64,000 nt of DNA from an uncultured virus (IMG/VR IMGVR_UViG_3300032316_001438) (IMGVR_UViG_3300032316_001438); one strand, 5' to 3'. Shown: positions 1,655 through 50,784, numbered from the stretch's first letter. The notes: generated by a model from the sequence alone, not told the origin. Program-made: numbers and translations.

Positions 1655-1990
1655 TTAAATAAGACTAACCACAAACAAAGCAACCACAACTGCGACCGAC
1701 ACCCCGCAATACCTCGCTACAAGTTCACGCCCACGCTCCGAGCTACTGGTGGGTCCGCAACCTTCTTTTGTTGGGTGATCGTAGAACCCCAGCTTGAGAG
1801 CTTCTATATCTCGCGCAGCATGGAATGGTACCAACGGACCCTGGTGGCCTGAAGGGCGCTTGCAATACTGGCCGGCCTTCGCGTGGCAGTCCGGGCATTC
1901 GACTTCAAAGACCGGATCTTGCCGAAATTCATGTTGACAGCTATTACAAGTAGTTGGAACATTTGGCTTCGATGCCGGATAAAAACTCAT
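1655..1990 (-). CDS. zinc-finger domain protein
   Basis: CxxC...H and CPDC-x7-C...H..R metal-binding patterns. Confidence 0.7.
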   Translation of the reverse strand: MSFYPASKPNVPTTCNSCQHEFRQDPVFEVECPDCHAKAGQYCKRPSGHQGPLVPFHAARDIEALKLGFYDHPTKEGCGPTSSSERGRELVARYCGVSVAVVVALFVVSLI

Positions 1991-2298
1991 TGCGGAAATA
2001 ACTTTTTAAACAGTGTAGGATTTAAAATAGACAATGCTTGTTTAAAACCGTTGAGATACCCGTACATATCGTTAGTGAAACAGCTAGACTCCGATTCTGC
2101 GTATTGGTTTGCCAGGAGTTGAATAACATCCTCTGTGATGTCCACCTCGATCACACTACTAACAACGATATCATTCTCGTCTCCTTGCTGCGTGTGTAGA
2201 AGGTACTCTTTTACTAAACTGATAGCGTCCTCCTCGCTCTGTGCTACAACAAGGGTAGGTGAAGAGTTTTGATTGTGCAATGCTTGAAATATTTTCAT
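1987..2298 (-). CDS. hypothetical protein
   Basis: 103 aa ORF whose stop overlaps the next start; VVAQSEEDA motif. Confidence 0.65.
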   Translation of the reverse strand: MKIFQALHNQNSSPTLVVAQSEEDAISLVKEYLLHTQQGDENDIVVSSVIEVDITEDVIQLLANQYAESESSCFTNDMYGYLNGFKQALSILNPTLFKKLFPQ

Positions 2299-2315
2299 AA
2301 GGCAAAAGTATATAT

Positions 2316-2642
2316 CTATTCACTACACACAAGAATCTCATGCTTGCCAGCGTAGTCTCTAACCTTTGAGCGCTCATCTTGAAGGTACTTAATGAAGATA
2401 TCGAGTTCCTTTAGACCCATTTCAACTGACATACTTTGCATCCTCTTTCCAATTTTTAAAATCTCTATTTGAATCCCGGCTGAATGGCCTCTTTTTGAGG
2501 CGGTAAGCGCTCTGTAATCTTGCTTGTCACCACTAGGCATAAGAACATAATCCTCCATCGTGAAGTGGGGGGTATCCAGGGTGTCAACGAAAACGGATGT
2601 TTCTACAACGTAATTATCGCTGGTTCTTTTTATGTGTTTCAT
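2316..2642 (-). CDS. hypothetical protein
   Basis: 108 aa ORF in operon-like block. Confidence 0.65.
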   Translation of the reverse strand: MKHIKRTSDNYVVETSVFVDTLDTPHFTMEDYVLMPSGDKQDYRALTASKRGHSAGIQIEILKIGKRMQSMSVEMGLKELDIFIKYLQDERSKVRDYAGKHEILVCSE

Positions 2643-2658
2643 TTATCGAAATGATTAG

Positions 2659-3051
2659 TTAAGCTGCAATTAAAAAATTCCGTACCGCTGGCACTAGCGC
2701 TCCTGGGAACACCGGCTGAAGGAGTCGGCTGTTCATAAACTTCACAAGACCTTTATCGCTATGGATAGGCCGAGGGTTTAGTTTGCATCCACCACAGGTG
2801 ATCACATTGTAACCTCCCTGATAAGAAGCAACCTTAACCTGAAGCGGCTTGACGTAGAAAAGGAACGGATCGTTAATCAGAGAATGGTTTTCCTTTATTT
2901 TATTCAAGTGGTAGTCAAAGTCCAGATGATATCTTCTGTCAAGTTGAATAGAAAGGTTAGCTAACTCCAAAGGCGTTGATGAAGGAATCAGGTAGACTAT
3001 CAATCCTGTTTTGAATAAGGCTTTTGCTTTTTGTTTTGTTACCTCAATCAT
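2659..3051 (-). CDS. hypothetical protein
   Basis: 130 aa ORF, first gene after motif at 3102. Confidence 0.65.
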   Translation of the reverse strand: MIEVTKQKAKALFKTGLIVYLIPSSTPLELANLSIQLDRRYHLDFDYHLNKIKENHSLINDPFLFYVKPLQVKVASYQGGYNVITCGGCKLNPRPIHSDKGLVKFMNSRLLQPVFPGALVPAVRNFLIAA

Positions 3052-3101
3052 AAGTTGATAATTTGAAAGGTAGAGATCAAAAGAACAAATGGATTCAACT
3101 A

Positions 3102-3108
3102 CCGACCG
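3102..3108 (-). promoter_or_regulatory. CGGTCGG upstream element (representative of about 21 copies between 1692 and 50755)
   Basis: CCGACCG on + at 3102, 3770, 13198, 13828, 14336, 14984, 21793, 23576, 24724, 30543, 34819, 35446, 37025, 38606, 39307, 47614, 49346, 50749; variants at 1692, 21226, 22671; each 38-67 bp upstream of a minus-strand ATG. Confidence 0.8.
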
Positions 3109-3120
3109 CCCAGGGCGCGA

Positions 3121-3717: not shown

Positions 3718-3807
3718 GGTCTATTCGTTCAATACCTCTCATATCACACGATCCAATGGAGGTCAACCACCGACCGGCCCGGATTTGGACTAATTCAAAT
3801 ACTATTC

Positions 3808-3830
3808 TATTTTTGTCTTCACGTCCAAAA
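3808..3830 (+). promoter_or_regulatory. Bacteroidota sigma70-type -7 element (TATTTTTG) followed by ACGTCCAAAA
   Basis: Matches TAnnTTTG consensus upstream of the ATG at 3838. Confidence 0.6.
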
Positions 3831-3837
3831 AGAAGAA

Positions 3838-4335: not shown

Positions 4336-4463
4336 TCACGAACAAAGAAATAGGATACGTTTAAAAAAAGAAAAACAGAATATGGAGGCAATAGCAGTGT
4401 GGGGAGTGATAGTAGTTACTGTTGGTATTGCGATGTCACGGTTAAAAAGAAAAACAAGTAGAT

Positions 4464-5249: not shown

Positions 5250-5293
5250 TTACGAGCGATTAAAAAAAACCAGTACATATAAATAGTACAAAA

Positions 5294-6114: not shown

Positions 6115-6179
6115 TAGTGGAAATCATTCTGCAAGGATGTTTTCAGAAGTTAAAGTAAGTAACAAATAAAAAATACAAT

Positions 6180-7888: not shown

Positions 7889-9115
7889 TTATACAAAACC
7901 TACACAATGTTTCACATTGCTGTTTGCTTCCTGCTTCATTGAGATTCCGCTGATGATTGGCGGGGATTGTATCTCTCCACAGGCATAAACGGTGTAACTC
8001 ACCGCCTTTTTTTGAAGGTTTAAACTCGCGTTCAAATCCCTATCTATTATTAAATCACACTTGTCGCAATGGTAGACTCGCTCTGTTAATTCTACGGAGC
8101 TTTTCTTGTTTCCACAGCAACTGCAAATCTTACTGCTTGCGTAAAATCTATCAACTACTGTCAAAGTAGATCCGTACCACTGGCTTTTGTATTCACATTG
8201 CCGCCTAAACTCATAAAACCCGCCATCCGAAATAGCACTGGCGAGCTTATGATTTATTAGCATGCCGCTAACATTCAAATCTTCAATCACTATCTCACTA
8301 AAGTTTCTTGTGAGGTAGGTCGTTAATTTGTGAATGCTATCCTTTCTGATATTGGCGATTCTCTGGTGAATTCTAGCTACTCGCTTAACTTCCTTCTTGT
8401 AATTATTGCTTTGGTTCTTGGCAACTTTTACAAATTTCTTGCTAACCTTTCGCTGGGCAATCTTTAATTTTCTTTTATTCCTCCCGTACGCTTTAACATT
8501 TTTAAACTCCTCACCATTGCTTAACGTGGCTAGTGTTTTGATTCCTATATCGACTCCAATGGTTTCGGTTTTTTTGATTGTTGCGATTGGTGTGTGAGCC
8601 ACTTTAAAGCTAACGAACCACTCATCTGCAGTTCGACTAATAACAACGTTCTTGATTTCTTCAGCAGGAAGAAGCTCCGAACATTTTAACCATCCGAATT
8701 TAGGAATCTTAATTTTCGTTCCATTGGTTCTGATTGCTCCTTCCAAATAAAAGCTATCACGCACTCCGCGTTTTTTATAGTTAGGCAGGCCTTGTAGTCG
8801 ACCTTTCTTATCCTTCAGCTTGTAACCACTCTTCTTTTGCTTTCGATGAAAGTTTTTGAAAGCTTTCTCCAGGTTGCGAAGGGCCTCCTGAGGGCTACAC
8901 TTGGAGCTTATGTAGTACCAAGGTTTTATTGTCTTTACCTCAGCTACTAATTTCTTATGCAAATCAATAGCCGATGGAATTCTCTCTTCCGCCTCAAATG
9001 CTTTTTTACAAACATCGATACCCCAATTATACGCATCGCGCACAGTTCCAGCGTGACGCGCAGCCAGTGTTATTTGTTTGTTGTTTAATTCTAAGCGAAC
9101 TTTTACGGACTTCAT
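7889..9115 (-). CDS. tnpB: RNA-guided endonuclease TnpB
   Basis: RuvC D (GVDIG), E (IEDL) and D (DRDLNA) all present; CxxC..CxxC zinc ribbon. Confidence 0.93.
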   Translation of the reverse strand: MKSVKVRLELNNKQITLAARHAGTVRDAYNWGIDVCKKAFEAEERIPSAIDLHKKLVAEVKTIKPWYYISSKCSPQEALRNLEKAFKNFHRKQKKSGYKLKDKKGRLQGLPNYKKRGVRDSFYLEGAIRTNGTKIKIPKFGWLKCSELLPAEEIKNVVISRTADEWFVSFKVAHTPIATIKKTETIGVDIGIKTLATLSNGEEFKNVKAYGRNKRKLKIAQRKVSKKFVKVAKNQSNNYKKEVKRVARIHQRIANIRKDSIHKLTTYLTRNFSEIVIEDLNVSGMLINHKLASAISDGGFYEFRRQCEYKSQWYGSTLTVVDRFYASSKICSCCGNKKSSVELTERVYHCDKCDLIIDRDLNASLNLQKKAVSYTVYACGEIQSPPIISGISMKQEANSNVKHCVGFV

Positions 9116-11866: not shown

Positions 11867-11872
11867 TAGAAT

Positions 11873-13147: not shown

Positions 13148-13208
13148 AATTTGAGTATTTACTAGGTGTATTTGAGTTAAACAGAAAGAGCAACCACCCG
13201 ACCGTCCA

Positions 13209-13821: not shown

Positions 13822-14010
13822 CTAAACCCGACCGCTCCGGGCCTTGGACTGGTCAACGTATGCCTTCGCAAGCGCTTCACCATGTCCGGCTATGACTGCG
13901 GAGTGAATGTTCTTGAAGCCTAGCTCGTTGGCTTTCTCACGCATAGCGGAACGCTTTTTTTTCATTGCAGAAAAGTTGAGCATCGATTTTTTGTTATTCA
14001 TAGATTCCAA
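13822..14010 (-). CDS. small hypothetical protein
   Basis: 62 aa basic ORF. Confidence 0.5.
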   Translation of the reverse strand: MESMNNKKSMLNFSAMKKKRSAMREKANELGFKNIHSAVIAGHGEALAKAYVDQSKARSGRV

Positions 14011-14017
14011 ATTGGAG

Positions 14018-14281
14018 TTAGTTGCTGTCTGTCATTTCGCAAAAAGGAATTTCCTCTTTGGTCGCCTCTACGAGTGAATTACAATGAACTAGGCCGACAA
14101 GTTTTCCGTTTCTAGCCACGTAGCAATGTCCCATGGTGTTTGCGGGTGGACATCCAGATGGCGACTTTACGACCTCCACGCGCATACCAGGGCGTAGATC
14201 TGTTTTAGGGTCGCATCGATCCATCATAACCGGCTGGTAGACGTAAGTAGTGTTGATTGTGACCATGTTTAGTTTTGCCAT
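14018..14281 (-). CDS. hypothetical protein
   Basis: 87 aa ORF with GCPPANTMGHCYV motif; follows motif at 14336. Confidence 0.7.
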   Translation of the reverse strand: MAKLNMVTINTTYVYQPVMMDRCDPKTDLRPGMRVEVVKSPSGCPPANTMGHCYVARNGKLVGLVHCNSLVEATKEEIPFCEMTDSN

Positions 14282-14391
14282 TTTGTTTAATGATGATTTA
14301 GCCTATTACCACACCAAGGAATACAGAGAACACCGCCGACCGAACCACGCGCAGCGGAAAAAAATGTCAAAAATATCACCCCAATTAATAT

Positions 14392-14946: not shown

Positions 14947-15036
14947 AACCCGTCATTAAGCACTAAAGGAGAGAAACGTAAACCCGACCGCCCATGGAAA
15001 TAAAAACGGCATTTTGCAGATGATAAAAGAAAGCAG

Positions 15037-15060
15037 TAAGTTTGTTCAGACGTCTAAAAC
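15037..15060 (+). promoter_or_regulatory. Bacteroidota -7 element TAAGTTTG followed by ACGTCTAAAA
   Basis: Consensus match upstream of the ATG at 15078. Confidence 0.6.
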
Positions 15061-15077: not shown

Positions 15078-15953
15078 ATGGAAAACAAGCTAGATTCAAC
15101 TATCGACATTGTAGGGTTATTACAGCCTGGAGCCAAAGGATTAGATTCATTTGTACATCCTGAGGGAAACTATTTTAGTCAGAAGAATATGGGACACATG
15201 GTGTCAGCCAACATGGCAATGTTTGCCGTGCTTAAAATGTGTGAAGCCAGAGATAACAATAATCCGCTGGGAGCGTACTCAATATGCGATAGTAGCTTGA
15301 AGGTTTTACGTAGCGAGCATCAGCCAATAGTAGAGGGAGCACTGCGTCAGCTAAACTCAGACAAGCTCAATAGCGTGGATGTTGCATTGATGGCCTTCGA
15401 GACAACGCGCAATAGCTTGCGTGGCCCTGTTACAAATAACACGATTAATGTGGCACGGGATACAGAGCGGAGAGATAGATTCTTGGGTGCTGTATCTAAT
15501 TTGGTGAACAGCAATTACAAGGGCATGGTTAACAACATGGATCAGGCCAGAACTTTGTACCAGGATCAAAAGAACGACAAAGCAAAGAATCACCAGCTTG
15601 GGGTAGCATCACTTGTGACCGTTAATGAGATAAAAGCTGAGCGCTGGAGAGAGTTAAAGGCAGCAACGTTGATCTCCTTGAACTCGATTCTGACAAAGAC
15701 ACAGCAGGCGGCAACAAAAGTATCTTCAGTTCTTCAAGGTGTTGTCAAAAACCAGAAAGCACAGATATCTTTAGTTGATAATAGCATAAGTGAAAATGAG
15801 CGCAAAGCGAAAGCCTTAGGCTTCGATGATAAGACGTTGGCCAGCGTTAAAGCGGGCACGTTAAAGTACTTCCCAGGAACAGCGATGGAAGCCAAGGCAC
15901 CGGCGATGGCAAGCTTTCAGGAGCTGGACCAGACAAGGGGCAGGAGCATGTAG
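15078..15953 (+). CDS. hypothetical protein
   Basis: 291 aa helical ORF with C-terminus QELDQTRGRSM. Confidence 0.75.
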   Translation: MENKLDSTIDIVGLLQPGAKGLDSFVHPEGNYFSQKNMGHMVSANMAMFAVLKMCEARDNNNPLGAYSICDSSLKVLRSEHQPIVEGALRQLNSDKLNSVDVALMAFETTRNSLRGPVTNNTINVARDTERRDRFLGAVSNLVNSNYKGMVNNMDQARTLYQDQKNDKAKNHQLGVASLVTVNEIKAERWRELKAATLISLNSILTKTQQAATKVSSVLQGVVKNQKAQISLVDNSISENERKAKALGFDDKTLASVKAGTLKYFPGTAMEAKAPAMASFQELDQTRGRSM

Positions 15954-16020
15954 TCGTATTTGGTAGGATGAATTAATCTTTCAGAAGAAAGAGTAAAAAA
16001 TAAATTAAAATGTTCACATC

Positions 16021-16281
16021 ATGTCAGTAGATAAAAAAATGGAGGAGGCCTCAAATGATCCCAAAAGTATTTTTTATGGGGCAAGAGCTTTTACCGAGCA
16101 GCAAATGAGTCTTGAGCAGGCCGAGCAAGAAAACATTTTGCTTGACCAGCAGGTGACCAGTGGGCTCCAGCGAGTAGAGCAACTCAAGCAGGAAGTTCTT
16201 GACTTGGGGAAAAGCAAGGAGTCAAAAGACAAGAACCTGGAGAACATCTTGAAGTTTCAAAAGGATATGGGTATCCAGTAA
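16021..16281 (+). CDS. small coiled-coil protein
   Basis: 86 aa Q/E/L-rich ORF. Confidence 0.65.
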   Translation: MSVDKKMEEASNDPKSIFYGARAFTEQQMSLEQAEQENILLDQQVTSGLQRVEQLKQEVLDLGKSKESKDKNLENILKFQKDMGIQ

Positions 16282-16299
16282 AATTAACAACGGACAAGA

Positions 16300-16563
16300 A
16301 TGAACCATTTAAAAAACGAATTACTTAAAAGTCATCTCACTAAACTGGAGACATCCGTTGAAATTATCAGCGACATGATCGCGCACAAGTCGAATCTTCT
16401 TCGTGCGGCCGTGGAGCTAGAGGATGGTGCGCTGGAAACAGAGTTAAAATCTGAGATCAACGCGCTTGCTAAGGAAAAATCAATGTGCTATGACTCAACT
16501 GTTAATGAGTCAATATTCACTAAGGCCATCGGGCAGTACGCTACATATCTTAAAGCAAACTAA
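16300..16563 (+). CDS. small helical protein, candidate antitoxin
   Basis: 87 aa ORF ending 3 bp before the zeta toxin gene. Confidence 0.55.
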   Translation: MNHLKNELLKSHLTKLETSVEIISDMIAHKSNLLRAAVELEDGALETELKSEINALAKEKSMCYDSTVNESIFTKAIGQYATYLKAN

Positions 16564-16566
16564 TCG

Positions 16567-17499
16567 ATGGAGGTAGAAGTTTTTGATGGGATGTCCTCCA
16601 GGGAGCTTCGAATGCTGGAAGTAGACATATTCTCCTACGAGTTAGATGGCAAGAAACCATCGGAGAATAAAGTGCTGGCGATAATTGGTGGGCAACCGGC
16701 ATCAGGAAAGAGCTTGCTTCTAGAAAAGCTATCTGGTGAACTAGGAAGTGACCAGACTGTAGTCATAAATGGTGATGAACTTCGTCGATATCACCCTAAC
16801 TACAGGCAGTGGGCAAAGAGTGATGACAAAACTGTGGCGGACAAAACACAGCCTTTCGCCAATCACATGTGCAATCACCTTAAAAGAGAAGCCCTTTTGC
16901 GGGGATTAAATGTTGTCATCGAGGGCACAATGAGAGACGCTCAAATATCGGTATCCACAGCGAAGGAATTTGCAGCAATGGGCTATCGCGTTGGCGCACA
17001 TATCATGGCGGTGACAGGGGAGAGGAGCATTTTAGGCGTTCATAAGAGGTATGAGGCGCAAAAGTTACTTCACGGTCATGGCCGATTTACCCAGGAGGGT
17101 ATACATGATCAATCCTATTTTGCAGTACCAAGAACAGCCGATATATTGTACGAGCTTCAGGAGGTGCATGAAATTAATATCTACAACTACAAAGGAGACA
17201 ATATCTACGAAAACTACAGAAAGCCATCGATAAAGTGGTCTGTCAAAAACTTTGATACAGAGTGGAGTATGCCGGTGGAGCCGAGTATTGCAATAAATGA
17301 GGAGCGACGCAGGGATCTGAGCTTCAATGAGAAAGTGGAGATCGCCAGGGATTGGAGCTTGATCGTGGCATTACAACACAACAGGGGAGTGGTGAACGAT
17401 TTTTGCGAGCGTAATCTTGAAAGGGTGAAGTCGACTTATGTCTCAGAGGAAAATGTGTTCGGCTCCAGGCGCACGGTTGGAGCTAGAATCGGGTTATAA
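16567..17499 (+). CDS. zeta toxin family P-loop kinase
   Basis: GGQPASGKS Walker A, INGDELRRYHPNY, IEGTMR and R....H motifs. Confidence 0.9.
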   Translation: MEVEVFDGMSSRELRMLEVDIFSYELDGKKPSENKVLAIIGGQPASGKSLLLEKLSGELGSDQTVVINGDELRRYHPNYRQWAKSDDKTVADKTQPFANHMCNHLKREALLRGLNVVIEGTMRDAQISVSTAKEFAAMGYRVGAHIMAVTGERSILGVHKRYEAQKLLHGHGRFTQEGIHDQSYFAVPRTADILYELQEVHEINIYNYKGDNIYENYRKPSIKWSVKNFDTEWSMPVEPSIAINEERRRDLSFNEKVEIARDWSLIVALQHNRGVVNDFCERNLERVKSTYVSEENVFGSRRTVGARIGL

Positions 17500-21188: not shown

Positions 21189-21242
21189 ACTAATGATTAC
21201 TAACGCTAATGCCAAAAGCACAACACCGACTGACCGAAATTT

Positions 21243-21736: not shown

Positions 21737-21825
21737 AGTTTTAAAAGATGTTAGTTGAAAAGATTGACACAAAGTAAGAATTAGACCAAACCCCGACCGT
21801 CCGGGAAAAATTTTGCGACCAAAAA

Positions 21826-22044: not shown

Positions 22045-22147
22045 ATCAAGAACAGTTTATTTGGACGCTGAATCAAAGATAACGAAAAACGAAAAGTAGT
22101 ATACCGTAAGCCAATAAGAAGTTAATAGGCCGGAGCCTACACACACA

Positions 22148-22623: not shown

Positions 22624-22689
22624 ACAACTATTTTTATGATATACTAAATCACTAATCAAGAACACGACCTGCGACCGCCCCCGGAAAAA

Positions 22690-23538: not shown

Positions 23539-23595
23539 TACCCAAACATCAATACATCACAGGAAGCAACAACGTCCGACCGACCCTGAGTTCTA

Positions 23596-24668: not shown

Positions 24669-24794
24669 TTTGTCGTATTGTTTATCTTTGAAAAAGAGTG
24701 CCGAGCGGACTTATCGACAATCACCGACCGTCCGAGGTAGGTACCAGAAGGAAGGTTTTCAGCTCGAAAAAACCCCAATTAAAAAGTATAAAGT

Positions 24795-29549: not shown

Positions 29550-29620
29550 TAATTAATGTTTTGCATTAATTATTTACAAAGGTTAAAAACAGGTCAAAAC
29601 AATCCAAAAACGCACTTTTT

Positions 29621-29664
29621 GTCCATTAATGTGTATTAATGTCCATTAATGTCCATTAATGTCC
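29621..29664. repeat. tandem 10-bp repeat GTCCATTAAT (about 4.4 units)
   Basis: gtccattaat gtgtattaat gtccattaat gtccattaat gtcc. Confidence 0.9.
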
Positions 29665-30504: not shown

Positions 30505-30635
30505 TGAACCCATAGAACACGAGACAACAACAAACATATTAACCGACCGTCCTTAGATAGGAAAAGAGAGGTTTTGAAAAAATAAAATTAAAGTTTAGAT
30601 TGAATTAATAAACACAACCTATTAACAAGAAAGAA

Positions 30636-34765: not shown

Positions 34766-34845
34766 TGTTTTAAATTATTTTCTTATTCAAATAAACAAAG
34801 AGAGAGAGAAACACAACCCCGACCGTCCGAGACTTTCCGACACCA

Positions 34846-35407: not shown

Positions 35408-35529
35408 ACTGGTGCCTTATCTCCCAGATAAAAGTTAACTAAACACCGACCGCCACCAAGCCCCAAAAAAAGCCTTGGTTAGCGTGGTATATTATTGTTA
35501 CCATAACTATTGCCATTTCCAAAAAAAAC

Positions 35530-36972: not shown

Positions 36973-37058
36973 ATATATAATAGTTATCTGTGATTGTATC
37001 ACTCAGTCATTTAAACAGCTCGACCCGACCGCTGCAAAAAAATAAATAATCACCACCG

Positions 37059-37563: not shown

Positions 37564-37995
37564 TTAGAAGATTGGTTGATCTGTTTCTTTTGATATCCCC
37601 ATTTTGCTCTTATGTATCTTTTCAAATGTGATGATGGCCGACCGGAGTAAATCCTCGCCATATTTTTCTCCGGCCATGTACTCTGCGTTCTCCCAACCTC
37701 TGCTTTCCGCTTTTTCCTCTATGTAGTCCATGACCTCTCTTATCTTGGGTTCGATTTCAATACCAAAAGAGTTAGGCGGGTAAGTCGGCAAACTTCTAAC
37801 TATTGGAACAGGGTCAGAACCAGAATACTCTTCAAACCATTCTTCAATTAACTTTACATCTAAATTGTTTTCATTGCTGTGGGAGACAGCTTCATGGTAT
37901 CGGATAAAAACCCTATCATCTGAAGTGGTAAAAAGACTATTGCACTGTTGGCCTAGTTCGCCTTGAAAATATTTGTTTATGGTTTCTTGAGTCAT
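37564..37995 (-). CDS. hypothetical protein
   Basis: 143 aa ORF. Confidence 0.65.
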   Translation of the reverse strand: MTQETINKYFQGELGQQCNSLFTTSDDRVFIRYHEAVSHSNENNLDVKLIEEWFEEYSGSDPVPIVRSLPTYPPNSFGIEIEPKIREVMDYIEEKAESRGWENAEYMAGEKYGEDLLRSAIITFEKIHKSKMGISKETDQPIF

Positions 37996-38567: not shown

Positions 38568-38949
38568 ACCTAGTGGTTAATGAATGGAATTATTTTAGCC
38601 AAACCCCGACCGTTACTCCACGGGTGCCGGGGCCGCTTTTGTTTTTGTCAGAAAGTCCACCATAAAAAAATATGGGTTGACAAACCTCTTTATAATAGGC
38701 TTGGCTAGTTCGGGCGTGTTGTCTTCACTCTGAACATGAATGCGACACCGAAACACAACAGGTTCATTTTCCTTTCTGATGGTTGCCATCGATTCCAGCC
38801 CAACGGAATAAGATTCTCCGAGAGCCTCTGCCATCTGCGCGTGCTGCTTTTCAAAATGCGCGAAGGCTTGATTGGGAGTCATGCCCGACACCCTCAAGTC
38901 AAAGCAAAGGGTTTTTATATCGCAAAAAGGCGTGTGTCGTTTCACCGAT

Positions 38950-39243: not shown

Positions 39244-39408
39244 AGAGCAATCCTTAATTGTTAAAAGATATTGATAACCACATCAGGAAAGGTATGAGCA
39301 CAAACGCCGACCGTCCAGGACCAGCGCACGTAGTGGCCACGAAAGCCTTCTTGTCAAAATTTTGGTTTTGACCTTCTATCAATGTAAATTTCCTGTCCTC
39401 ACAAACTA

Positions 39409-39747
39409 ATGAAGATACACGAAAAATTAAGACGTCTAAGGAGAAGTAGAAATCTATCTCAATCGGACGTAGCTATTGAAGTTGGAGTAGATTACAGTAC
39501 CTACAATTCCTATGCGCAAGATGGCGGGAAAATTCAGTTAAAGACTCTTGAAAAAATAGCAACATTTTATGGATACAAAAACCTTAGCCGCTTTTTTGAT
39601 GACAAGCATGAGGATGGTTCGACGACAAGCAAGACGACTACTGGTAACGCTATACAGGTGATTGTTGAGTTGGACGGAGATGCTGATAAGTTAGCCGAAA
39701 CAATGGAAAAGCTAAAAAAAATGAATAGGGTTATTGGGAGTCAGTAG
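39409..39747 (+). CDS. XRE/Cro-C1 helix-turn-helix regulator
   Basis: LRRLRRSRNLSQSDVA..VGVDYSTY. Confidence 0.88.
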   Translation: MKIHEKLRRLRRSRNLSQSDVAIEVGVDYSTYNSYAQDGGKIQLKTLEKIATFYGYKNLSRFFDDKHEDGSTTSKTTTGNAIQVIVELDGDADKLAETMEKLKKMNRVIGSQ

Positions 39748-39999: not shown

Positions 40000-41196
40000 T
40001 TATTTTGCAATTATTTCTTCGTTGGTATCATCGTACCTGTAATTAACTATTTCACCCGATTTAATCAATTGAATTGCCTGTTCAATAATATTTAACGGTG
40101 CTATGAACCATTCGCGTGGGGAATACCTTCGGCCATCCCTTCCGGTGATGTCAATATTTAAACAGGCTGAACCAAAGAAGTTATGGATTAACAACTCAAA
40201 CTTTTGTGGGTTCATGTTGTAGCATTGGTAAGCCATTACAATTCTAACGTCTGCCATTAAGTAAGTAGGTTCTTGGATCGCATTTTTAATGCGGTCTTCT
40301 ACTGACGTTTTAGAAAAGCCGATCTTGTATAGGTTCTGGATTTCCCTAATTTCCTGCTTATCGCTTTTGGATTTGAGAATGTAGATGAAGCCTGCTTCCA
40401 CGTCTTCTTCATTCACATTATTGAACGATTCGATAAAACGATAGTTTACTTCGGCATCGTTTTTTGTCAGCACTTGTCCATTGACATATAAAACTTTTGC
40501 CAGCGACCTATAGAGCATGTTTGATTCCGTTCCGTTCTCGAATACGCACCTTGTACGTCCATCTTTGCGCACACGCGAACCATCAGGAAAATACTTTTCC
40601 TCTTTAGTAAAGTCTATTTTTTCCAGCAAGAGTAATACGCCATTGTGAACATAGAAATTACCTTCTACTAAATTGTCTTCCTTGAACTGAATGAGCTTGC
40701 GCTTGCCTGTTGAAATGTCTTTCTGAACATCTTTAAATAGCTGCTCGTATTTTGAAAAATCTCTACAGGGTTTTCTTCGCGCCACGAAATCTGCCTCGGC
40801 TCTTTCCTTGTCGGATAGGGTTACATTTTTGAGCTCGAATAGTCCTTCGGAATCATCACCGAGCAAACCTAATACATCATCATTCAAAATATCGTCCAAT
40901 GAATTGATTTGCTTTTTCTCATAATGCAGCAGTCCGTATTTGTCATGCAAGTTCAGGATTTCAACTTTGATTGCATTCTCTCTCAAGGATTTTAAGCGTG
41001 AATACAACTGGTGCTCTTGTAATCCACCGCCTTGTTCGGGTACCCGTTTATTCTTTTCGTAGAAATCGTTTATTTCCTGAAAGGAAGCCAAAAGCCTTTC
41101 ATCTTCATTCCGCGCGGGTGCAGTGGAAGGTTTGATATTCAACAACCCAAGAGGATCATTTTCAAATAACTCTTGTAGCCTTTTATCCTTATCCAT
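40000..41196 (-). CDS. GIY-YIG / T5orf172 domain nuclease (YeeC-like)
   Basis: GFIYIL...YKIGFS...VEDRI...E...H...REWF. Confidence 0.88.
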   Translation of the reverse strand: MDKDKRLQELFENDPLGLLNIKPSTAPARNEDERLLASFQEINDFYEKNKRVPEQGGGLQEHQLYSRLKSLRENAIKVEILNLHDKYGLLHYEKKQINSLDDILNDDVLGLLGDDSEGLFELKNVTLSDKERAEADFVARRKPCRDFSKYEQLFKDVQKDISTGKRKLIQFKEDNLVEGNFYVHNGVLLLLEKIDFTKEEKYFPDGSRVRKDGRTRCVFENGTESNMLYRSLAKVLYVNGQVLTKNDAEVNYRFIESFNNVNEEDVEAGFIYILKSKSDKQEIREIQNLYKIGFSKTSVEDRIKNAIQEPTYLMADVRIVMAYQCYNMNPQKFELLIHNFFGSACLNIDITGRDGRRYSPREWFIAPLNIIEQAIQLIKSGEIVNYRYDDTNEEIIAK

Positions 41197-43117
41197 TTTG
41201 CTGCTTGCGCTTTTGTTCTTTCAAAAAGATAATTGCTTCGGCCATTCTTCTTTCTAATGGATCGGTAGATTGAAGGCTTGGCTCCTTCTTGAAGGTCTTT
41301 GCAAAGTCGTTGATCTTAGGCCATAGCAGCAACGCTTCTTCCAAGGTCATTTGAATGCGTGTTGCTTCAATTACGTCTTGGATTACTTTCAGCACTTTTG
41401 TTGTTACTGACTTGGATAAAATCTCGAATGCTTTTTGGAAGGGGTTAATGCGGTCTATCAAATCAATATGCAAATCGTCAATATTTACAAACTGTCCTGC
41501 CATTCTTATAAATCGTTTGTCGCCTACTTCTTTTATTTCTCCGTTCTTGACTACAGAATCGACTACCACATACTGGCGAACTTCTTCTACTTCTTCCGGT
41601 GATAACTCAGGATATTTTACTTGGATAATTTTTGGGATTATTGCCTTGTTGATTACCTCCGGGTCTACATTGCCAGGCATGACCTTTAGCATGGTATCGT
41701 CTTGCAGAATTGTTGCCTTTAAATCGTTCAGATCGGACTCGATAATATCCTTTACCCGTTTTGATGTTGGTGTTTTAAACCCACGGATTTTTATCTCGCC
41801 CGGTTTGGCTTTGTCCTCATCGGATAATTTCGTTTTGAATTTGAAGTTTGGCGCAAGCACTTGTTCCATCAACAGCGATGCGGTGATGGCTTTAAGCATG
41901 TTGTTTACAGATAGCTTTACCAGATCATCGGCAGCATCGGGCTGGGCGATTAAGTTGGTAAACTGTGCGTGTGTTTTATTGTTGCTGTCGCGGGTGCAAC
42001 GGCCTATGATTTGAATGATCTCCGTTAACGACCCTCTGTAGCCAACCGTTAAGGCGTGTTCGCAATACGGCCAGTCAAAACCTTCTTTTGCCATGCCAAG
42101 CGCAATGATCAAATCCATGTCGTCAACCGACTTGATTGTGCGAAGGTAGTTTTGAATTTTATCTCTATCCTTTTGATTGTCGTTTACCAGATCAGCTACT
42201 TTTAATATTTTGCCATCGGTGTGCCTCCTTATATAGATAGCTCCAGTTTCGCTATCCACTTTTTCAACATCGCCAATCGCATCTAAGATCGTATCTACTT
42301 CCTGATGCTTGTCTTTGGTGGATTCGCCTGAATTTACATTGGGTATGTGCAAGATTGTTTTCTTGTCTGTATCTAAGATTTCAAGAATGGCTGTAGTGTA
42401 ACGGCCTTGGTAAAAATGGTAGCCAATGCCTAATGATTTAAGATAGGTGTAACCGTTTAGCTGTTCGTAATAGTTGTAGGTGACTTTGGTGAACTTAGCT
42501 TCGTCTTCGGGTTTTAACACAGGAACACTATCGCCACGGAAATATGAACCCGTCATAGCCACCACATGGGCGTTTGACTTTTGCATGATTGACCGTAGCA
42601 ATTCGCCCAAGCGACTATCGCCATCGGCAGATACGTGGTGGAATTCATCAATGGCTAAAAGTATGTTGTCGAATTTGGTTTCATCTAATTCTTCAAAGGC
42701 AAAACGAAGTGTGGCGTGGGTACAGATCAAAATCTTTTCGGTGTTCTCTAAAAAGTTCTTGAAGGCTTGCACTTTACTTTTGCTACCGTCCATGCCGGGA
42801 GTGCAAAGATTGTATTCATCGTTAGGCTCCCAGTTGGAAAAGAAGCCAAAGTCTTTGAGATTGGTTTTGCCGAATGAACCACCAATGGATTTTTCGGGAA
42901 CGGCTACAATAACTTTCTTTAATCCCTGATGGATTAATTTATCGAGCGCAATAAACATTAGGGCGCGTGACTTACCGGAAGCGGGAGGGGCTTTCAATAG
43001 AAGGTATTGTGCATCGCGAGCCTGATAGGCTTTCTCCTGCATTTCGCGCATGCCATAAGTATTGATCTTCGAGCTTTGCCCTGTTTGGGCGTAAGTAACA
43101 TGTACTATATCGGGCAT
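41189..43117 (-). CDS. DEAD/DEAH helicase (YeeB-like)
   Basis: APPASGKS, DEFHH, MTGS, EGFDW and QIIGR motifs. Confidence 0.9.
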   Translation of the reverse strand: MPDIVHVTYAQTGQSSKINTYGMREMQEKAYQARDAQYLLLKAPPASGKSRALMFIALDKLIHQGLKKVIVAVPEKSIGGSFGKTNLKDFGFFSNWEPNDEYNLCTPGMDGSKSKVQAFKNFLENTEKILICTHATLRFAFEELDETKFDNILLAIDEFHHVSADGDSRLGELLRSIMQKSNAHVVAMTGSYFRGDSVPVLKPEDEAKFTKVTYNYYEQLNGYTYLKSLGIGYHFYQGRYTTAILEILDTDKKTILHIPNVNSGESTKDKHQEVDTILDAIGDVEKVDSETGAIYIRRHTDGKILKVADLVNDNQKDRDKIQNYLRTIKSVDDMDLIIALGMAKEGFDWPYCEHALTVGYRGSLTEIIQIIGRCTRDSNNKTHAQFTNLIAQPDAADDLVKLSVNNMLKAITASLLMEQVLAPNFKFKTKLSDEDKAKPGEIKIRGFKTPTSKRVKDIIESDLNDLKATILQDDTMLKVMPGNVDPEVINKAIIPKIIQVKYPELSPEEVEEVRQYVVVDSVVKNGEIKEVGDKRFIRMAGQFVNIDDLHIDLIDRINPFQKAFEILSKSVTTKVLKVIQDVIEATRIQMTLEEALLLWPKINDFAKTFKKEPSLQSTDPLERRMAEAIIFLKEQKRKQQNG

Positions 43118-43119
43118 GG

Positions 43120-45807
43120 CTATTTCTTTTTCTTTTTCGGTTTTTTCTCTACTTCAAACAAAGTGCCTTTAGTTTTTTCTTCCTCGATCATTTGTTCGTA
43201 GAGTTTAAACAAATATTCTAACCGTTCTTCATCTGTTTCAAATGGCTTGCTTCTGTAGCAACGTTCTACAGCAAGATCATTTTGAAGGTGTGCTTCCTTT
43301 AATCCCTGTGGCATTCTATTAGGATCATAAAGTTGAGCAAATGTTTTTTCTGAATGATTCTCTCGTTCTTCTAAAATACGAAAGACGTATTTTTCCAGTT
43401 CCTTTTTTTGTAATACTGGTATGTCGGGAAACGGAAATGTATTATAGACAATTGATGAAGAATAACTCATTCGTGTTTCAAGCTTTCCTCCTACAGCCTT
43501 AAGCCATGTGATGTGCATTTTAGATGACAGAACAGAAAAGATATACTGTTCTGGATTATAGATTGGGAATGCTTTGTCCATTACCACTACATTCTTAGTG
43601 TAGAATCCAATAGGCAAGTAATTTCTATTTTCTGATGAAACTTTGGGTATTACTACAAGATTACCTTCTATATATCTTGGTTCGCCAAAACGATGTGGGT
43701 ACATGGCTGCATCAATAGTAGCTTGGCGTTTACTTTTTAACCTAAACTCCTTTACATCCTTTAATAAATTTTTTATTAAAGGCAAATCCTTTATTTCCTT
43801 TAATTCAGAATCTTCAATCCATAGGCAAAATCGTTCAATACCTTTTATAAGTTCTTGGGACCCCATTACCTTTTTAAAGTATTTTTCAAGTTTTGAGTTA
43901 GCTTTTACTATTTCATTCTTTTCAACATCAGAAAATAGTAAAAAACCACCATCTAATGCAGAACTTCCATAGCCAATTTTAGGAAGATTTGAAATAGTTG
44001 AAGTTCGATTTTGAATGTAAACTGTATTTGCATTAGTTAGATACGGATTGATGTTTTGGCAAGTTTGTTTAATGCTACCAGTAAATAAGTATTTGAGTTT
44101 ATGAATTTTATTTCTAACTCCAATTATTACTACGGTTACACCTGCATTTAATTTCGCATTATTTGACCATTTGAATGATGTATGGGCAAAGCCTATTTCT
44201 AGTTTATTATTTAAGACTGTTGGCCACAATAATGCAACTTGTTCACCTTGACAAATAGAATTTGTTGAAACAAACGCAAATTGAGCATTGCTATTTTCAA
44301 TGTACTTTGATCCTTTGAAAATCCAACAACTTATGAAGTCGAGGCTTTTAAACTGGTCAAAATCTTTAAAAACAAAAGCCATGTCCAGTTTTTGTTCTTC
44401 TTTTTGAACGCTGTAACCCAAATAAGGTGGATTCCCCAAAATATAAATCTCATCACCTTCTTTCTTCGGGCAAACTTTCTCCCAATCCAGTCTTGTTGCA
44501 TTGCCGTGTACAATATTACCTGTTTCTTGTAATGGCAAGGCTGGTTTTGTTCTTCCAAATTCTTTGAAGAACTCCTGGTTCATTTGGTGCTCTGCCAACC
44601 AAAGTGAGAGTGTTGCTACTTCATGGGCAAAGTCATCTATTTCAATACCGTAAAAGTTGCCGAGGTTGATGTTTGAAAACGCAAGGCTGTTCAATGCCTT
44701 AAAAATTTTCATTTCAAGCTTTCTTAATTCCTTGTAGGCTATAATCAAAAAGTTGCCACTACCGCAAGCGGGGTCAAAAAGCTTTATGTTCCAAATGCGT
44801 TGTAGCAATGCATTCAATTTTCTAGCATTGCCTTTGGCTGCTTCAAATTCTTCATAGAGGTTATTCAAAAACAGTGGCTCGATTACTTTCATAATGTTGG
44901 GCACACTGGTGTAGTGCAAGCCCAAGCCACCCCGCTGTTCTGGCGTAACAACCGCCTGAATCATAGAGCCGAAAATGTCGGGGTTTATCTTGCTCCAGTC
45001 TAATTCACCGCTATCAATAATTGCTTGTCGGCTGCGCCTGGTGAATACTGGTGCATGATGTTTGTGTCGGAACAATCCACCGTTTACATAAGGAAAGGCG
45101 TTGAGGTAAGAAGGGAGTTTTGAATGTGATTTAGGTGGGGTGTTCATCACCTCAAAGAGTTTATCAAGGAAGGTGTTCAGGTCACTACCATCTGTATTAG
45201 TAACTGAGCTGATGGCGTTGGTAAATTGATTCTCTTTTAAGATGCCCGTGTCTTCAGCGAAGAAGCAAAACAACAAGCGCGAAAGGAACACATTGAGGTT
45301 GTGAACTTGTTCGGGTGTTTTTGTTGGGTTGTCTTTCTTTATCTCGTCATACAGCTTAGCCATTTTCTCCGCTGCCTTTACATCGGCAGGGTTTTCGTTT
45401 TGGTGCTGAGCTTTCTCCATGCCTGCCCACGGCAAAAAGAAAACGAAATGATTGGCTATTTCGAGTATCGGTATATCGAGAGTCTCAGTTGTTTTGCGGT
45501 CTATTGCCACCATTGTTTCAAAGTCAGTGACAATAATAAAGCGCGGGTCGTGCTTTATGGCTTTGTCGCCTGCATTAATCCTATCAATTGCTTCATGTAA
45601 GTCTTCGCCCTTTACGGATTTGAAGAAGAGTTTCTTCTTCCAGATTATTTCTCCTGCTGTCTTTGAAAGGTTTAAGCCTCCGGCCTGCAACCGCTTAATG
45701 GATGCTTTGGGCTGACCATAGGCTAACAACAAATCGTAGATGAACGATTCGTGCTTGAAGGGCTTGGTTATTTTTTGGAGGTTGTTCTCTATTTGGGCGA
45801 TGTTCAT
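43120..45807 (-). CDS. MmeI-like N6-adenine DNA methyltransferase with target recognition domain (YeeA-like)
   Basis: FDPACGSGNF (motif I), GNPPY (motif IV), HYTS and YVNGGLF. Confidence 0.92.
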   Translation of the reverse strand: MNIAQIENNLQKITKPFKHESFIYDLLLAYGQPKASIKRLQAGGLNLSKTAGEIIWKKKLFFKSVKGEDLHEAIDRINAGDKAIKHDPRFIIVTDFETMVAIDRKTTETLDIPILEIANHFVFFLPWAGMEKAQHQNENPADVKAAEKMAKLYDEIKKDNPTKTPEQVHNLNVFLSRLLFCFFAEDTGILKENQFTNAISSVTNTDGSDLNTFLDKLFEVMNTPPKSHSKLPSYLNAFPYVNGGLFRHKHHAPVFTRRSRQAIIDSGELDWSKINPDIFGSMIQAVVTPEQRGGLGLHYTSVPNIMKVIEPLFLNNLYEEFEAAKGNARKLNALLQRIWNIKLFDPACGSGNFLIIAYKELRKLEMKIFKALNSLAFSNINLGNFYGIEIDDFAHEVATLSLWLAEHQMNQEFFKEFGRTKPALPLQETGNIVHGNATRLDWEKVCPKKEGDEIYILGNPPYLGYSVQKEEQKLDMAFVFKDFDQFKSLDFISCWIFKGSKYIENSNAQFAFVSTNSICQGEQVALLWPTVLNNKLEIGFAHTSFKWSNNAKLNAGVTVVIIGVRNKIHKLKYLFTGSIKQTCQNINPYLTNANTVYIQNRTSTISNLPKIGYGSSALDGGFLLFSDVEKNEIVKANSKLEKYFKKVMGSQELIKGIERFCLWIEDSELKEIKDLPLIKNLLKDVKEFRLKSKRQATIDAAMYPHRFGEPRYIEGNLVVIPKVSSENRNYLPIGFYTKNVVVMDKAFPIYNPEQYIFSVLSSKMHITWLKAVGGKLETRMSYSSSIVYNTFPFPDIPVLQKKELEKYVFRILEERENHSEKTFAQLYDPNRMPQGLKEAHLQNDLAVERCYRSKPFETDEERLEYLFKLYEQMIEEEKTKGTLFEVEKKPKKKKK

Positions 45808-46031
45808 TTGTATCAATCTCTGAAAAGCACTTTATCTTATTATTCTTGGGTGGGAAAAGGGTGTTGGGGCAATAGTAGCGAGTGCTGGATTTTCAACTGT
45901 TTCAATAATCATTAAGTATTGGTCAATATTTTTTAAAAGTTCATTTAGTGTTGAAGCTGCTCCCTTGTTGTCTGTAGAAAAATGGGATAGTTGCAATTGA
46001 TCGATAGTCATAAGTAAATAATAAAATCGAT

Positions 46032-46340: not shown

Positions 46341-46405
46341 AGAAACAAATAATTTAACTTAAAAATAGATCACAAAAGCGGATAATACAATTAGCGAGCA
46401 TATCG

Positions 46406-46870: not shown

Positions 46871-46873
46871 ATA

Positions 46874-47266: not shown

Positions 47267-47341
47267 TTTTTATCTTTTTGGACGTTAACACAATATTCCA
47301 TCATTCAAACAAATTTTCCAATTCAGCCAACTATGCCATTA

Positions 47342-47563: not shown

Positions 47564-47650
47564 ATCAGATACGTTTGGTGATTGTGATCTAAAACAGGAG
47601 CCAGAACCAAAGCCCGACCGTCCGAAGCCAACACCTGAGTAAGCTGGCAA

Positions 47651-48751: not shown

Positions 48752-48835
48752 GTGCTATGGATTTAGTTTTTAAGCTGTTCTAGTAGATTGATTTCTCGCA
48801 TAATAATGGCGTTTGAAGTGATATCGATTTTAAGT

Positions 48836-49294
48836 TTATTGGTTATTATCCACTCCATACATGAGAGAGCTGTCATGGTCATCAAAAGACCTACCTTCTT
48901 TAAGGGACTCATTTTCAACCGTTAGCTCGATGGCCTTTCCATGTTTAGACTCAAGGTTTTTAAGTATCTCAGGCATCTTTGCTTCATGGCAGCTCGCGAG
49001 CAGGTCAGCAAGCGCAAGTAGATTATTAGTCTCAATATCATCGAAAGCAAAATCCCTGACTTTACTAGTTTCACCATCCATACCCTTAACACCTTCCGTA
49101 CTCACCGAAACAATACGATACTCCTCATAGAAACCGTGTTTAGAAACATCTGAAATAATAGGGAGAGAATATAACGCATCAAGATCATCTTCTTCGGCAT
49201 TAAAAAGTTCAAAGTGTTCATCCTTTACAATTTCAAGAATGATCGCAAGGGCCGTAAGTCTTAGAGTATTGAGTTGTTGCAAAAAAGTAGCCAT
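48836..49294 (-). CDS. acidic hypothetical protein (start revised to MATFLQQ)
   Basis: ATG 52 bp from motif at 49346. Confidence 0.65.
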   Translation of the reverse strand: MATFLQQLNTLRLTALAIILEIVKDEHFELFNAEEDDLDALYSLPIISDVSKHGFYEEYRIVSVSTEGVKGMDGETSKVRDFAFDDIETNNLLALADLLASCHEAKMPEILKNLESKHGKAIELTVENESLKEGRSFDDHDSSLMYGVDNNQ

Positions 49295-49382
49295 AGAGTT
49301 TCGATTAGTTTCTTGTGTAGTTAAAAAAATAGGCTGTGACAACACCCGACCGTACCCGCCTGGAAAAAAATAGTGAAGGAAG

Positions 49383-49868
49383 CTATGCTAACGGAAAGCC
49401 AATGCTATTTATCGCTTGATGGAAAGAGCCAAACCGCTTTTCTAATCTCTCAGCAAGAATCGAAGCAGCTTTTTCGTTAAACTCGATACCGAAACTTTCA
49501 CAAACCTTGCTATACTCAAACATATCTAGTAATGGCCTGATATAGCAATGGCCATTGACTAGTTCATCAGGCATCTTCTCATCCACTAGTTGCCGGAAAG
49601 TGAGTATTCCATCCCCATCTAAATAGATGCCATGAGGAATCAATTGAACCACCACATGATTTAGGATATCGCGATCTGAGCGCTTAATGGCGGCGGACCA
49701 TACTGCATCGAGTCGAACAATGCGTTCATTGTTTGCCCAGATTTTAATAGCTTCAGCAAGCGTCCAGCAGCCACCATCGTTCCAGCCGTAGCCGTCCAGC
49801 AAGGCAAGGTTCCTGCTAGAGAAAAGAAATCGCTTCCATTGTCTGTTGAATACTGCTACTGGGGTCAT
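49383..49868 (-). CDS. hypothetical protein, possibly Cys-His-Asp (papain/transglutaminase-like)
   Basis: GGCWTLA...HVVV...YLDGDG. Confidence 0.6.
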   Translation of the reverse strand: MTPVAVFNRQWKRFLFSSRNLALLDGYGWNDGGCWTLAEAIKIWANNERIVRLDAVWSAAIKRSDRDILNHVVVQLIPHGIYLDGDGILTFRQLVDEKMPDELVNGHCYIRPLLDMFEYSKVCESFGIEFNEKAASILAERLEKRFGSFHQAINSIGFPLA

Positions 49869-50365
49869 GCTATGTTGGTTGGCAAGGGGTTGAGTTTAGA
49901 ATCTATGAAAGCATCGATCTCATCATAAAACTCACCATCCCATTTACGACCCTTGTTCTTGTTCTCGAACTCCTTGGTTAGTTCATTTGCCAAATCCCAG
50001 AGAGCCATCCGGCCCCCGTCCATTCTAAGCCCCGATATCAATTGGCAGGGTTTCTCTTTTGCGTTCTCCAAAGCAATAGCGTTAACAACTTCGAAATGAG
50101 TTTCTCTCCATGACGCAAATTCATCCTCTGTGGCCGGGATAGAGAGTGAGGGTTTGATGGTTGTTCCAGTAGATGCAACCGGTTTTGAAACATCGAAATG
50201 AACGATATTTAAGTCAGTAGAGTCGAACGTGTTTCCATATTGGTCAAGAGGCGTTTCTTCTAGTTCCGCCTCAACTTTTTCTTTCGCAAGTTCAAGGGTG
50301 TCAGCCTCAACTTCGATTAACTTCTTGTACGTATCGGTTTGTGTGGCGTAGAGTTTGAAAATCAT
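49865..50365 (-). CDS. protein with N-terminal DpnD/PcfM-like domain (start revised to MIFKLYA)
   Basis: IEVEADTLELAKEKV; C-terminal W.ETHFEVV domain. Confidence 0.7.
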   Translation of the reverse strand: MIFKLYATQTDTYKKLIEVEADTLELAKEKVEAELEETPLDQYGNTFDSTDLNIVHFDVSKPVASTGTTIKPSLSIPATEDEFASWRETHFEVVNAIALENAKEKPCQLISGLRMDGGRMALWDLANELTKEFENKNKGRKWDGEFYDEIDAFIDSKLNPLPTNIA

Positions 50366-50380
50366 AGTGAGTAGATTAAC

Positions 50381-50441
50381 TAGGGGTGAGGGATTAAATG
50401 AGGGGTTAAATGAGGGATTAAAAAGCTGCGATAGGGGTGAG
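50381..50441. repeat. 12-bp tandem repeat GAGGG(A/G)TTAAA(T/A) x3 flanked by TAGGGGTGAG direct repeats
   Basis: Read directly from the sequence. Confidence 0.8.
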
Positions 50442-50684
50442 TTGACCTTCAAGCTGTTCAGTCTCACCTTCGGAGATGATCTGGCATCGAACAGTGAACA
50501 CGCCATTGTATTTCTCAAACACAACAGACAATGAATTTAACTCATCAGTGTTGTAAACGGTTTGGATGGCGTTATCTAGTTTTTCAAGAAAGCCTTTGTC
50601 CGCCTCCGGCTTTTCTGGCGCATCGATTGTGAAGCGAGGGTATCTGTCAGAGGAGTCGATGAAAACGCAGTTTTGTTTTGACAT
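50418..50684 (-). CDS. hypothetical protein
   Basis: 88 aa ORF; follows motif at 50749. Confidence 0.65.
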   Translation of the reverse strand: MSKQNCVFIDSSDRYPRFTIDAPEKPEADKGFLEKLDNAIQTVYNTDELNSLSVVFEKYNGVFTVRCQIISEGETEQLEGQLTPIAAF

Positions 50685-50784
50685 GGTAGCTGGATTAAGA
50701 ATTGATATTTTCTCTTATCAACACTTAACATCAGCCTTGAGTCAGCAACCGACCGTCCAGGCTACCAAAGAAAAAAGTATGAAA

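Follow-up and report, generated by a model that had tools for sequence, protein, structure and literature searches.

The 64-kb stretch of DNA analyzed here (IMG/VR entry IMGVR_UViG_3300032316_001438; the window in what follows) is part of a plasmid from a Cytophagales-type bacterium. Towards its right end it carries a Rep3-family initiator gene (rep) and a DnaB helicase gene, both assigned with Pfam, and beside rep an iteron array that is likely the replication origin. An arm of at least 51 kb extends to the left of this origin and contains 70 minus-strand genes, together with 16 plus-strand genes in five inverted islands. A short, strictly oriented word recurs at the heads of the gene blocks of this arm; its distribution, its relation to host-type promoters and its possible function are considered below. 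The main features are as follows.

1–51204, minus strand: co-directional arm, running off the left end of the window (from the map of open reading frames (ORFs) and the gap table)
50785–51204, minus strand: gene for a protein of 139 amino acids (aa) next to the origin, the only minus-strand arm gene that does not lie behind a motif copy
51702–51857, minus strand: four exact iterons AAACCCTCCAC with longer shared flanks, just upstream of rep; likely origin
52038–53357: rep
53405–54853: DnaB helicase gene

Distribution and anatomy of the CGGTCGG motif

The heptamer CCGACCG, which reads CGGTCGG on the coding strand of the arm, occurs 19 times on the plus strand of the window and is absent from the minus strand. 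None of 100 dinucleotide shuffles reached this number (mean 2.39 copies, maximum 7), which corresponds to an approximately 8-fold excess, and an unbiased 7-mer scan returned CCGACCG as the most over-represented word in the window (observed/expected 11.4, strands 19:0). Seventeen of the 19 exact copies are fully intergenic, as against an intergenic share of 8.7% for the arm (binomial P of about 1e-16). The word is far from equally common inside genes and on both strands, the pattern that a preliminary description of this DNA had named as contrary to its proposal. All 18 exact coordinates in that description carry CCGACCG on the plus strand, with a further copy, at 37638, missing from its list. 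It was also right that no copy stands in the opposite orientation and that none lies beyond the origin, since no exact copy occurs right of 50755 on either strand.

A position weight matrix (PWM) of the 16-nucleotide (nt) coding-strand motif was scored over all positions on both strands. The three one-mismatch variants described earlier were all found in place, but they differ in quality: 22671 and 21226 rank 18 and 19 and are credible, whereas 1692, in the last codons of ORF 1655–1990, ranks 23 and is borderline. At 37638, the exact copy falls within overlapping ORFs and its flanks depart strongly from the consensus; it is therefore probably the one chance copy that would be expected. The credible set (n = 20) accordingly comprises 18 exact copies and the one-mismatch copies 22671 and 21226, and leaves out 37638 and 1692. 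All copies are listed below with the coordinates of the 16-nt stretch, the heptamer core and the PWM score.

50743–50758 (−), core 50749–50755: score 25.1; heads the three-gene block 50684 to 49383
49340–49355 (−), core 49346–49352: score 25.9; heads an unknown gene and an ATP-dependent ligase gene
47608–47623 (−), core 47614–47620: score 29.1; heads an eight-gene block that includes MmeI-like restriction–modification (RM) genes and also has an internal host-type promoter at 47276–47285
39301–39316 (−), core 39307–39313: score 28.3; divergent junction with the helix-turn-helix (HTH) gene 39409–39747 (+)
38600–38615 (−), core 38606–38612: score 22.3; immediately follows the stop codon of the preceding gene
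37632–37647 (−), core-only copy 37638–37644: total score 0.4, flanks alone −14.5; probably chance
37019–37034 (−), core 37025–37031: score 12.8, leave-one-out 1.6; weak flanks; heads a C5 DNA methylase gene
35440–35455 (−), core 35446–35452: score 21.1
34813–34828 (−), core 34819–34825: score 27.9; heads a five-gene block whose last gene encodes a DUF2130 protein
30537–30552 (−), core 30543–30549: score 16.4; divergent junction; heads the PAPS-reductase and helicase block
24718–24733 (−), core 24724–24730: score 25.5; divergent junction; heads a DpnD/PcfM-like gene
23570–23585 (−), core 23576–23582: score 23.2
22665–22680 (−), one-mismatch copy CGGTCGC, core 22671–22677: score 15.7
21787–21802 (−), core 21793–21799: score 30.8; best consensus match
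21220–21235 (−), one-mismatch copy CAGTCGG, core 21226–21232: score 15.3; heads a nine-gene block
14978–14993 (−), core 14984–14990: score 24.8; divergent junction; heads the RadC gene
14330–14345 (−), core 14336–14342: score 20.1
13822–13837 (−), core 13828–13834: score 27.5; overlaps the last codons of the upstream ORF
13192–13207 (−), core 13198–13204: score 23.0; heads a six-gene block with the gene for an 849-aa unknown protein
3764–3779 (−), core 3770–3776: score 26.6; divergent junction, back to back with the host-type promoter of gene 3838 (+)
3096–3111 (−), core 3102–3108: score 25.0; heads an eight-gene block
1686–1701 (−), borderline one-mismatch copy, core 1692–1698: score 8.4; in the 3' end of ORF 1655–1990

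Alignment of the copies revealed a conserved coding-strand stretch of about 16 contiguous nucleotides, GGaCGGTCGGkkkTTG, in which GG(a)CGGTCGG is followed by three G/T positions, TTG, a pyrimidine-rich run and an A-rich leader. Conservation of the 16 nt persists at copies that adjoin or run into the preceding ORF (38606 and 13828), and beyond T-richness no second conserved box was found up- or downstream of it. As described earlier, the copies lead minus-strand blocks: the 20 credible copies head 20 blocks of one to nine genes, to which 69 of the 70 minus-strand arm genes belong. The distance from the end of the motif to the next plausible ATG was measured as 37–66 nt (38–67 bp in the preliminary description), and the upstream stop codon lies at most 77 nt from the motif. 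Five copies (3770, 14984, 24724, 30543 and 39307) stand at divergent junctions without a minus-strand gene upstream, which means that a promoter must lie there and that a reading of the motif as a pure terminator or processing site fails. All five inverted islands border a motif copy. As an observation, the motif is confirmed, statistically overwhelming and promoter-associated.

Host-type promoters, folding and element specificity

Primary-sigma promoters of Bacteroidota follow the consensus −33 TTTG / −7 TAnnTTTG. No more than 2 of the 20 credible sites match TAnnTTTG at five or more of six positions at any fixed offset from −60 to +49, and an exact box is found near only three of them, at scattered offsets, as well as near the borderline copy 1692. 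When the TTG of the motif is taken as the −33 element, a −7-like box follows at the right spacing in just two sites (34819 and 23576). These counts bear out the earlier remark that most copies lack the host box. A sigma-54 promoter was likewise rejected, as its GG-N10-GC consensus (TGGCAC/TTGC) has a strict −24/−12 spacing, whereas the spacing from core to TTG varies here from N0 to N4 and is usually one nucleotide short of GG-N10-GC.

Seven other promoters form a second class, in which ACGTCC is followed by an A-run and preceded, 4–6 nt before, by a TAnnTTTG-like box. This box is exact at three sites and has one mismatch at two; the hexamer reads ACGTCT at 15050 and GCGTCC at 22069. The pattern ACGTCYWAAA occurs six times, against 0.56 expected. 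Genes and modules headed by such promoters include rep, the RM module and two inverted islands.

3812–3830: second-class promoter
15041–15059: second-class promoter
22063–22077 (−): second-class promoter
47276–47285 (−): second-class promoter
51989–52008: second-class promoter
56303–56312: second-class promoter
56431–56450: second-class promoter

The presence of the TAnnTTTG-like box in this class indicates that host-type promoters are recognizable in the window and thus provides an internal control. Since the second class is host-type and the CGGTCGG sites lack the host box, the window holds two promoter classes, of which CGGTCGG is the odd one, a clean contrast on a single molecule. GACGTC is palindromic, so the second class may represent the operator of a backbone regulon.

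The motif sites matched no Rfam family and no tRNA, and their RNA folds differ from site to site without a shared fold. A small hairpin through the motif, flagged by a terminator scan, was rejected because it shows no covariation (64.2% of cells paired, compared with 63.5% in shuffles). DNA folds of 127 nt at the 20 sites gave z scores from −1.93 to +1.73 with a mean near 0, none of them reaching −2. A Frpo-like single-strand promoter was rejected as well, given that its long stable hairpin module is absent and that folding is no better than in shuffles. The Frpo, ssi and ssp elements of F-like plasmids and EGeRS1 of pLS20 are similar in that they are repeated elements heading co-directional anti-defence or establishment operons, in those parts of the reports that are drawn on here (PMC12672017; PMC8708921; PMC11541004). 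They are, however, GC-rich, strongly folding modules, with EGeRS1 spanning 420–750 bp in the section of its report considered (PMC8708921), whereas about 16 nt are conserved here, in gaps of at most 165 bp. The lack of stable folding thus sets the motif apart from Frpo-type promoters and from EGeRS1.

In five of six other Bacteroidota plasmids CGGTCGG stays at or below the reversed-word control, and in the sixth it shows no strand bias (9 + 11 vs 5 + 16). The stricter pattern GGNCGGTCGGNNNTTG, with seven occurrences in the window, has matches in 77 of 401 Cytophagales genomes, which are never clustered, and a GGACGGTCGGNNTTTG scan of genome contigs gave single scattered matches only, among the matches listed. 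A k-mer scan of four related plasmids detected origin iterons only and no dispersed oriented word. As these plasmids and genomes show no enrichment, the motif is not a general host regulon of the Cytophagales as far as the sample goes, and within the same sample it appears specific to this element or its close kin.

Two unrelated repeats were seen in these collections. The Cytophagales genome G355 contains GGACGGTCGGCCGTTG at least six times, on both strands and scattered over several contigs; this is a different dispersed repeat, which shares the core by chance. The Tunicatimonas plasmid L148 carries tandem GGGTTAAT units followed by TTTCATGG units at about 14222–14300, which are probably origin iterons.

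Possible readings of the motif

We tentatively favor a reading in which the 16-nt word forms the core of self-contained promoters, of a class specific to this element, that are read by a dedicated factor. Each copy of GGaCGGTCGGkkkTTG would start transcription of one leftward block, and the approximately 20 copies would make 69 of the 70 minus-strand arm genes a single co-regulated set. The host primary sigma would not suffice to read the sites. Candidates for the reader are an alternative sigma factor, a separate polymerase or an activator by which RNA polymerase is recruited, and its gene may lie on a part of the plasmid outside the window. Terminator-like sites across 12–31 kb number 15, compared with 15.6 in shuffles; with no terminators between the blocks, a transcript would probably continue from each block into the next, as transcripts from the 17 same-direction promoters of phage T7 do. 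Most weight is placed on a promoter because the signal stays intact where it abuts coding sequence, and because the motif is the only feature shared by the junctions that require a promoter, where there is no host box. Transcription start at the motif, the identity of its reader and a role in establishment after transfer are what we infer from this pattern.

Several observations weigh against a self-contained promoter. With the variable spacing from core to TTG (N0–N4), the TTG lies at +10 to +12 in only 9 of the 20 sites. An upstream run of at least five T is present at 10 of the 20 sites and absent from the other 10, so that its earlier description as the usual context is generous, and where present this run could be a weak host −7-like box that places the motif at or after the transcript start. 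A GC-rich core is also unusual for a DNA-melting element. Finally, Pfam detected no sigma factor, RNA polymerase, NusG-like or obvious activator domain in the 101 ORFs of the window, and PHROGs (40 ORFs) and NCBIfam (68 ORFs) likewise returned none. The earlier proposal of an element-specific promoter class stands in so far as the motif is promoter-tied and element-specific, while the sigma factor, activator or polymerase that was to read it was not found among these ORFs.

Three HTH_3 genes and the gene at 50785–51204 are regulator candidates, none of which can be tied to the motif. The 139-aa product of the latter shows a strand–helix–helix pattern by eye and is a possible DNA-binding protein and candidate regulator; it has no Pfam match, its AlphaFold model is poor (pLDDT 51.7), and an Atlas lead to the ParB C-terminal family is weak (0.89) and uninformative. 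An Atlas search on 15078–15953 was uninformative too.

Among the alternatives, the motif could be an operator, bound by a plasmid repressor, that coincides with or closely follows the transcript start of weak host-type promoters. In a new host that lacks the repressor, the arm would be expressed for a short time and then silenced (zygotic induction), in the manner of Reg576. We consider this rather unlikely, although it has a precedent: in the part of the p576 report drawn on here, 18 TTATCCC heptamers are described, 13 of them at four establishment promoters, together with the ribbon-helix-helix repressor Reg576 (PMC6294495). As far as the consulted portions of the sources extend, the Reg576/EGeRS2 system of p576 shares with the present case a 7-nt word repeated on one plasmid before co-directional unknown establishment operons, and a regulatory sequence that defines the regulon (PMC6294495; PMC8708921). 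A short word repeated at several block heads is indeed what was found here, with 20 copies at 20 heads. The T-run lies 3–25 nt upstream at the 10 sites that have it and could be a degenerate −7 box. ACGTCC also stands directly after the −7 box in the second promoter class, which suggests that this plasmid may tend to place operators close to its promoters, and the motif-less arm gene 50785–51204 looks by eye as if it encodes a small DNA-binding protein.

An operator is harder to reconcile with the other 10 sites, which have no T-box and several of which abut the upstream ORF, and with the lack of a host −7 box at a fixed offset. The same part of the p576 report describes four clear host sigma-A promoters with dual or inverted heptamers and a known repressor (PMC6294495). 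Here, in contrast, about 20 sites each carry a single, non-palindromic and strictly oriented copy without a fixed host box, in the promoter grammar of a different phylum; operators in dual or inverted copies beside host promoters were not found. In addition, no repressor was identified, the fold predicted for 50785–51204 is poor, and the region upstream of that gene carries GTAAC/GTTAC repeats instead of CGGTCGG.

It is unlikely that the motif serves as a complete, self-contained promoter for a non-canonical transcription machine of the plasmid's own, such as a highly diverged sigma factor or a separate RNA polymerase. The gene for such a reader could lie beyond the window or be one of those for proteins without a known function. 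Phage T7 has 17 same-direction promoters, about 23 bp long and highly conserved, which are read by its own single-subunit RNA polymerase. The array described here is similar in its number of short, contiguous promoters facing one direction (about 17–20), in their intergenic position, in the approximately 40–50 kb of co-directional genes and in the scarcity of terminators; it differs in that no single-subunit RNA polymerase was found in the window and in that conservation is shorter and looser. Were the motif read by a plasmid-borne sigma factor or polymerase, genes could be expressed on transfer without dependence on the host by a new route, and the 50-kb arm would form an autonomous transcription unit of T7 type on a plasmid of the Bacteroidota, which could fire in a new host whatever the promoter grammar of that host.

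A signal that acts after initiation is quite unlikely. It would be either a pause or loading site for a NusG-like factor, in the style of ops and RfaH, or an RNA processing or stability signal for each block. RfaH, a NusG paralogue, reads the ops (JUMPStart) element, a directional word of 12 nt that lies close to the start of an operon, on the non-template strand. The motif is similarly located on the coding (non-template) strand, shares CGGT with ops and has the GG-N8-TG pause frame at 9 of the 20 sites; the lack of terminators between blocks would also suit a read-through role, which would explain the copies that abut an upstream ORF. However, only 5 of 12 positions agree with ops in the pause register, the spacing to TG varies, and ops is known as a single copy per operon, within a long leader, and depends on a NusG paralogue, whereas Pfam detected no NusG/KOW domain in the 101 ORFs of the window. 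The hairpin without covariation and the lack of an Rfam match also argue against an RNA signal, and the five blocks at divergent junctions would still need a promoter, with no host-type one at a fixed place.

A role at the level of DNA, apart from transcription, is highly improbable. The motif would then be a site for cassette recombination, a promoter or priming site that works on the transferred single strand, or a polar signal in replication or repair (resembling Ter, Chi or KOPS, or reflecting a biased orientation of restriction sites). Strict orientation along one replication arm from the origin and an arm of variable small-gene blocks whose islands border motif copies would fit it, but the sites show no inverted repeats, no stable single-strand fold and no consistent RNA fold, Pfam detected no integrase or recombinase domain in the window, polar signals and restriction bias predict neither the intergenic position nor the distance of 37–66 nt to start codons, and orientation bias does not explain the 8-fold excess. 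On the same grounds (inverted repeats, folding and recombinase domains), integron attC sites are rejected and the cassette recombination alternative of the preliminary description finds no support.

Returning to the element-specific promoter class, plasmid-wide regulons defined by a repeated upstream sequence include the CUP repeats of IncN and IncW plasmids with ArdK, the KorA/KorB operators of IncP plasmids, and the AcaCD/SetCD boxes. Several of these control leading-region or anti-restriction genes. They are found in Proteobacteria and have longer repeats or palindromic operators at host sigma-70 promoters, with known regulators. Our literature searches returned only models from Proteobacteria and Firmicutes, and no report of the control of arrival genes on Bacteroidota plasmids was found in these limited searches, which were not aimed there; a full-text search for the motif returned unrelated eukaryotic papers only. 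We class the arrangement as a variation on the 'establishment regulon' known from other plasmids, of which these searches turned up no example in this phylum.

No oriT, relaxase or transfer genes were found in the 64-kb window. A one-way orientation combined with such gene content has been described for leading regions, in the part of the source drawn on here (PMC11541004), and the arm, which fits these descriptions on both points, may be such a region. The motif resembles a switch of the plasmid's own for turning on genes that may aid its settlement in a new host. An arm marked by one 16-nt word thus offers a candidate list of establishment and anti-defence genes, with about 20 operons and 69 genes of mostly unknown function, and the word itself is a short, mutable handle for reporter assays and pull-downs.

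Replicon, relatives and arm genes

The nearest Rep proteins in PLSDB are 25–30% identical, occur on plasmids only and come from Chondrinema, Pontibacter, Hymenobacter and Tunicatimonas, and the best DNA match of the helicase gene is to the Microscilla plasmid pSD15. A 95% identical Rep (P0001) is encoded on a 43.6-kb contig whose NCBI source name is a Cytophagales metagenome-assembled genome; a search of 31 genomes from a single family did not recover this relative. Across the 401 Cytophagales genomes Rep identity reaches at most 36%, and the 849-aa protein has no match. Public relatives of the gene at 50785–51204 are P0004 (99%; eight contigs of up to 62.8 kb) and P0005 (87%). No similar DNA was found in PLSDB or in the phage collection, and viral-contig scans with three queries returned nothing; in metagenomes, the 849-aa protein and a Rep alignment as queries yielded nothing beyond a truncated contig with a 48% Rep.

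A stray exact copy of the iteron AAACCCTCCAC is located at 31762. The rep promoter and the first rep codons (51989–52080) are duplicated about 4.4 kb downstream, at 56431–56520, where they head a 90-aa ORF (56473–56745) that begins like Rep. Two GTAAC-N8/9-GTTAC inverted repeats at 51430–51500, between the origin and the gene at 50785–51204, may be a partition site or an operator for the small protein encoded there.

Recognizable products of the arm are mostly DNA- or RNA-processing enzymes. Pfam assigned SNase, an Rv2179c-like exoribonuclease, RadC, PAPS reductase, DUF2130, an orphan C5 methylase, NT5C, an ATP-dependent ligase, two helicases, an MmeI-like RM enzyme and a DpnD/PcfM-like protein. 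Most of the small arm genes belong to no family: NCBIfam gave none for any of the 68 unknown ORFs tested, and PHROGs gave no match for 35 of 40. The 849-aa protein could be assigned to no family in Pfam, PHROGs or NCBIfam, a sequence search of the PDB returned no match, and the idea that it is a YonO-like polymerase found no support.

A defence-like module at 40000–45816 (−) encodes an MmeI-like type IIL RM enzyme (898 aa), a DEAD/ResIII helicase and a T5orf172/MUG113 protein, and sits downstream of the host-type promoter at 47276–47285. An IS605-family TnpB (OrfB, with a Cas12f-like TNB domain) is encoded at 7889–9115 (−), at the edge of the first inverted island. The inverted island 15078–17499 (+) ends in a kinase with a zeta-toxin domain (16567–17499) that is preceded by two small ORFs, and is possibly a toxin–antitoxin stabilizing module. 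Three ATTAATGGACA repeats lie at 29620–29660 (−), just upstream of the gene for a 779-aa helicase (27210–29549); the window-wide count of this sequence is not above chance, yet the repeats are tightly clustered.

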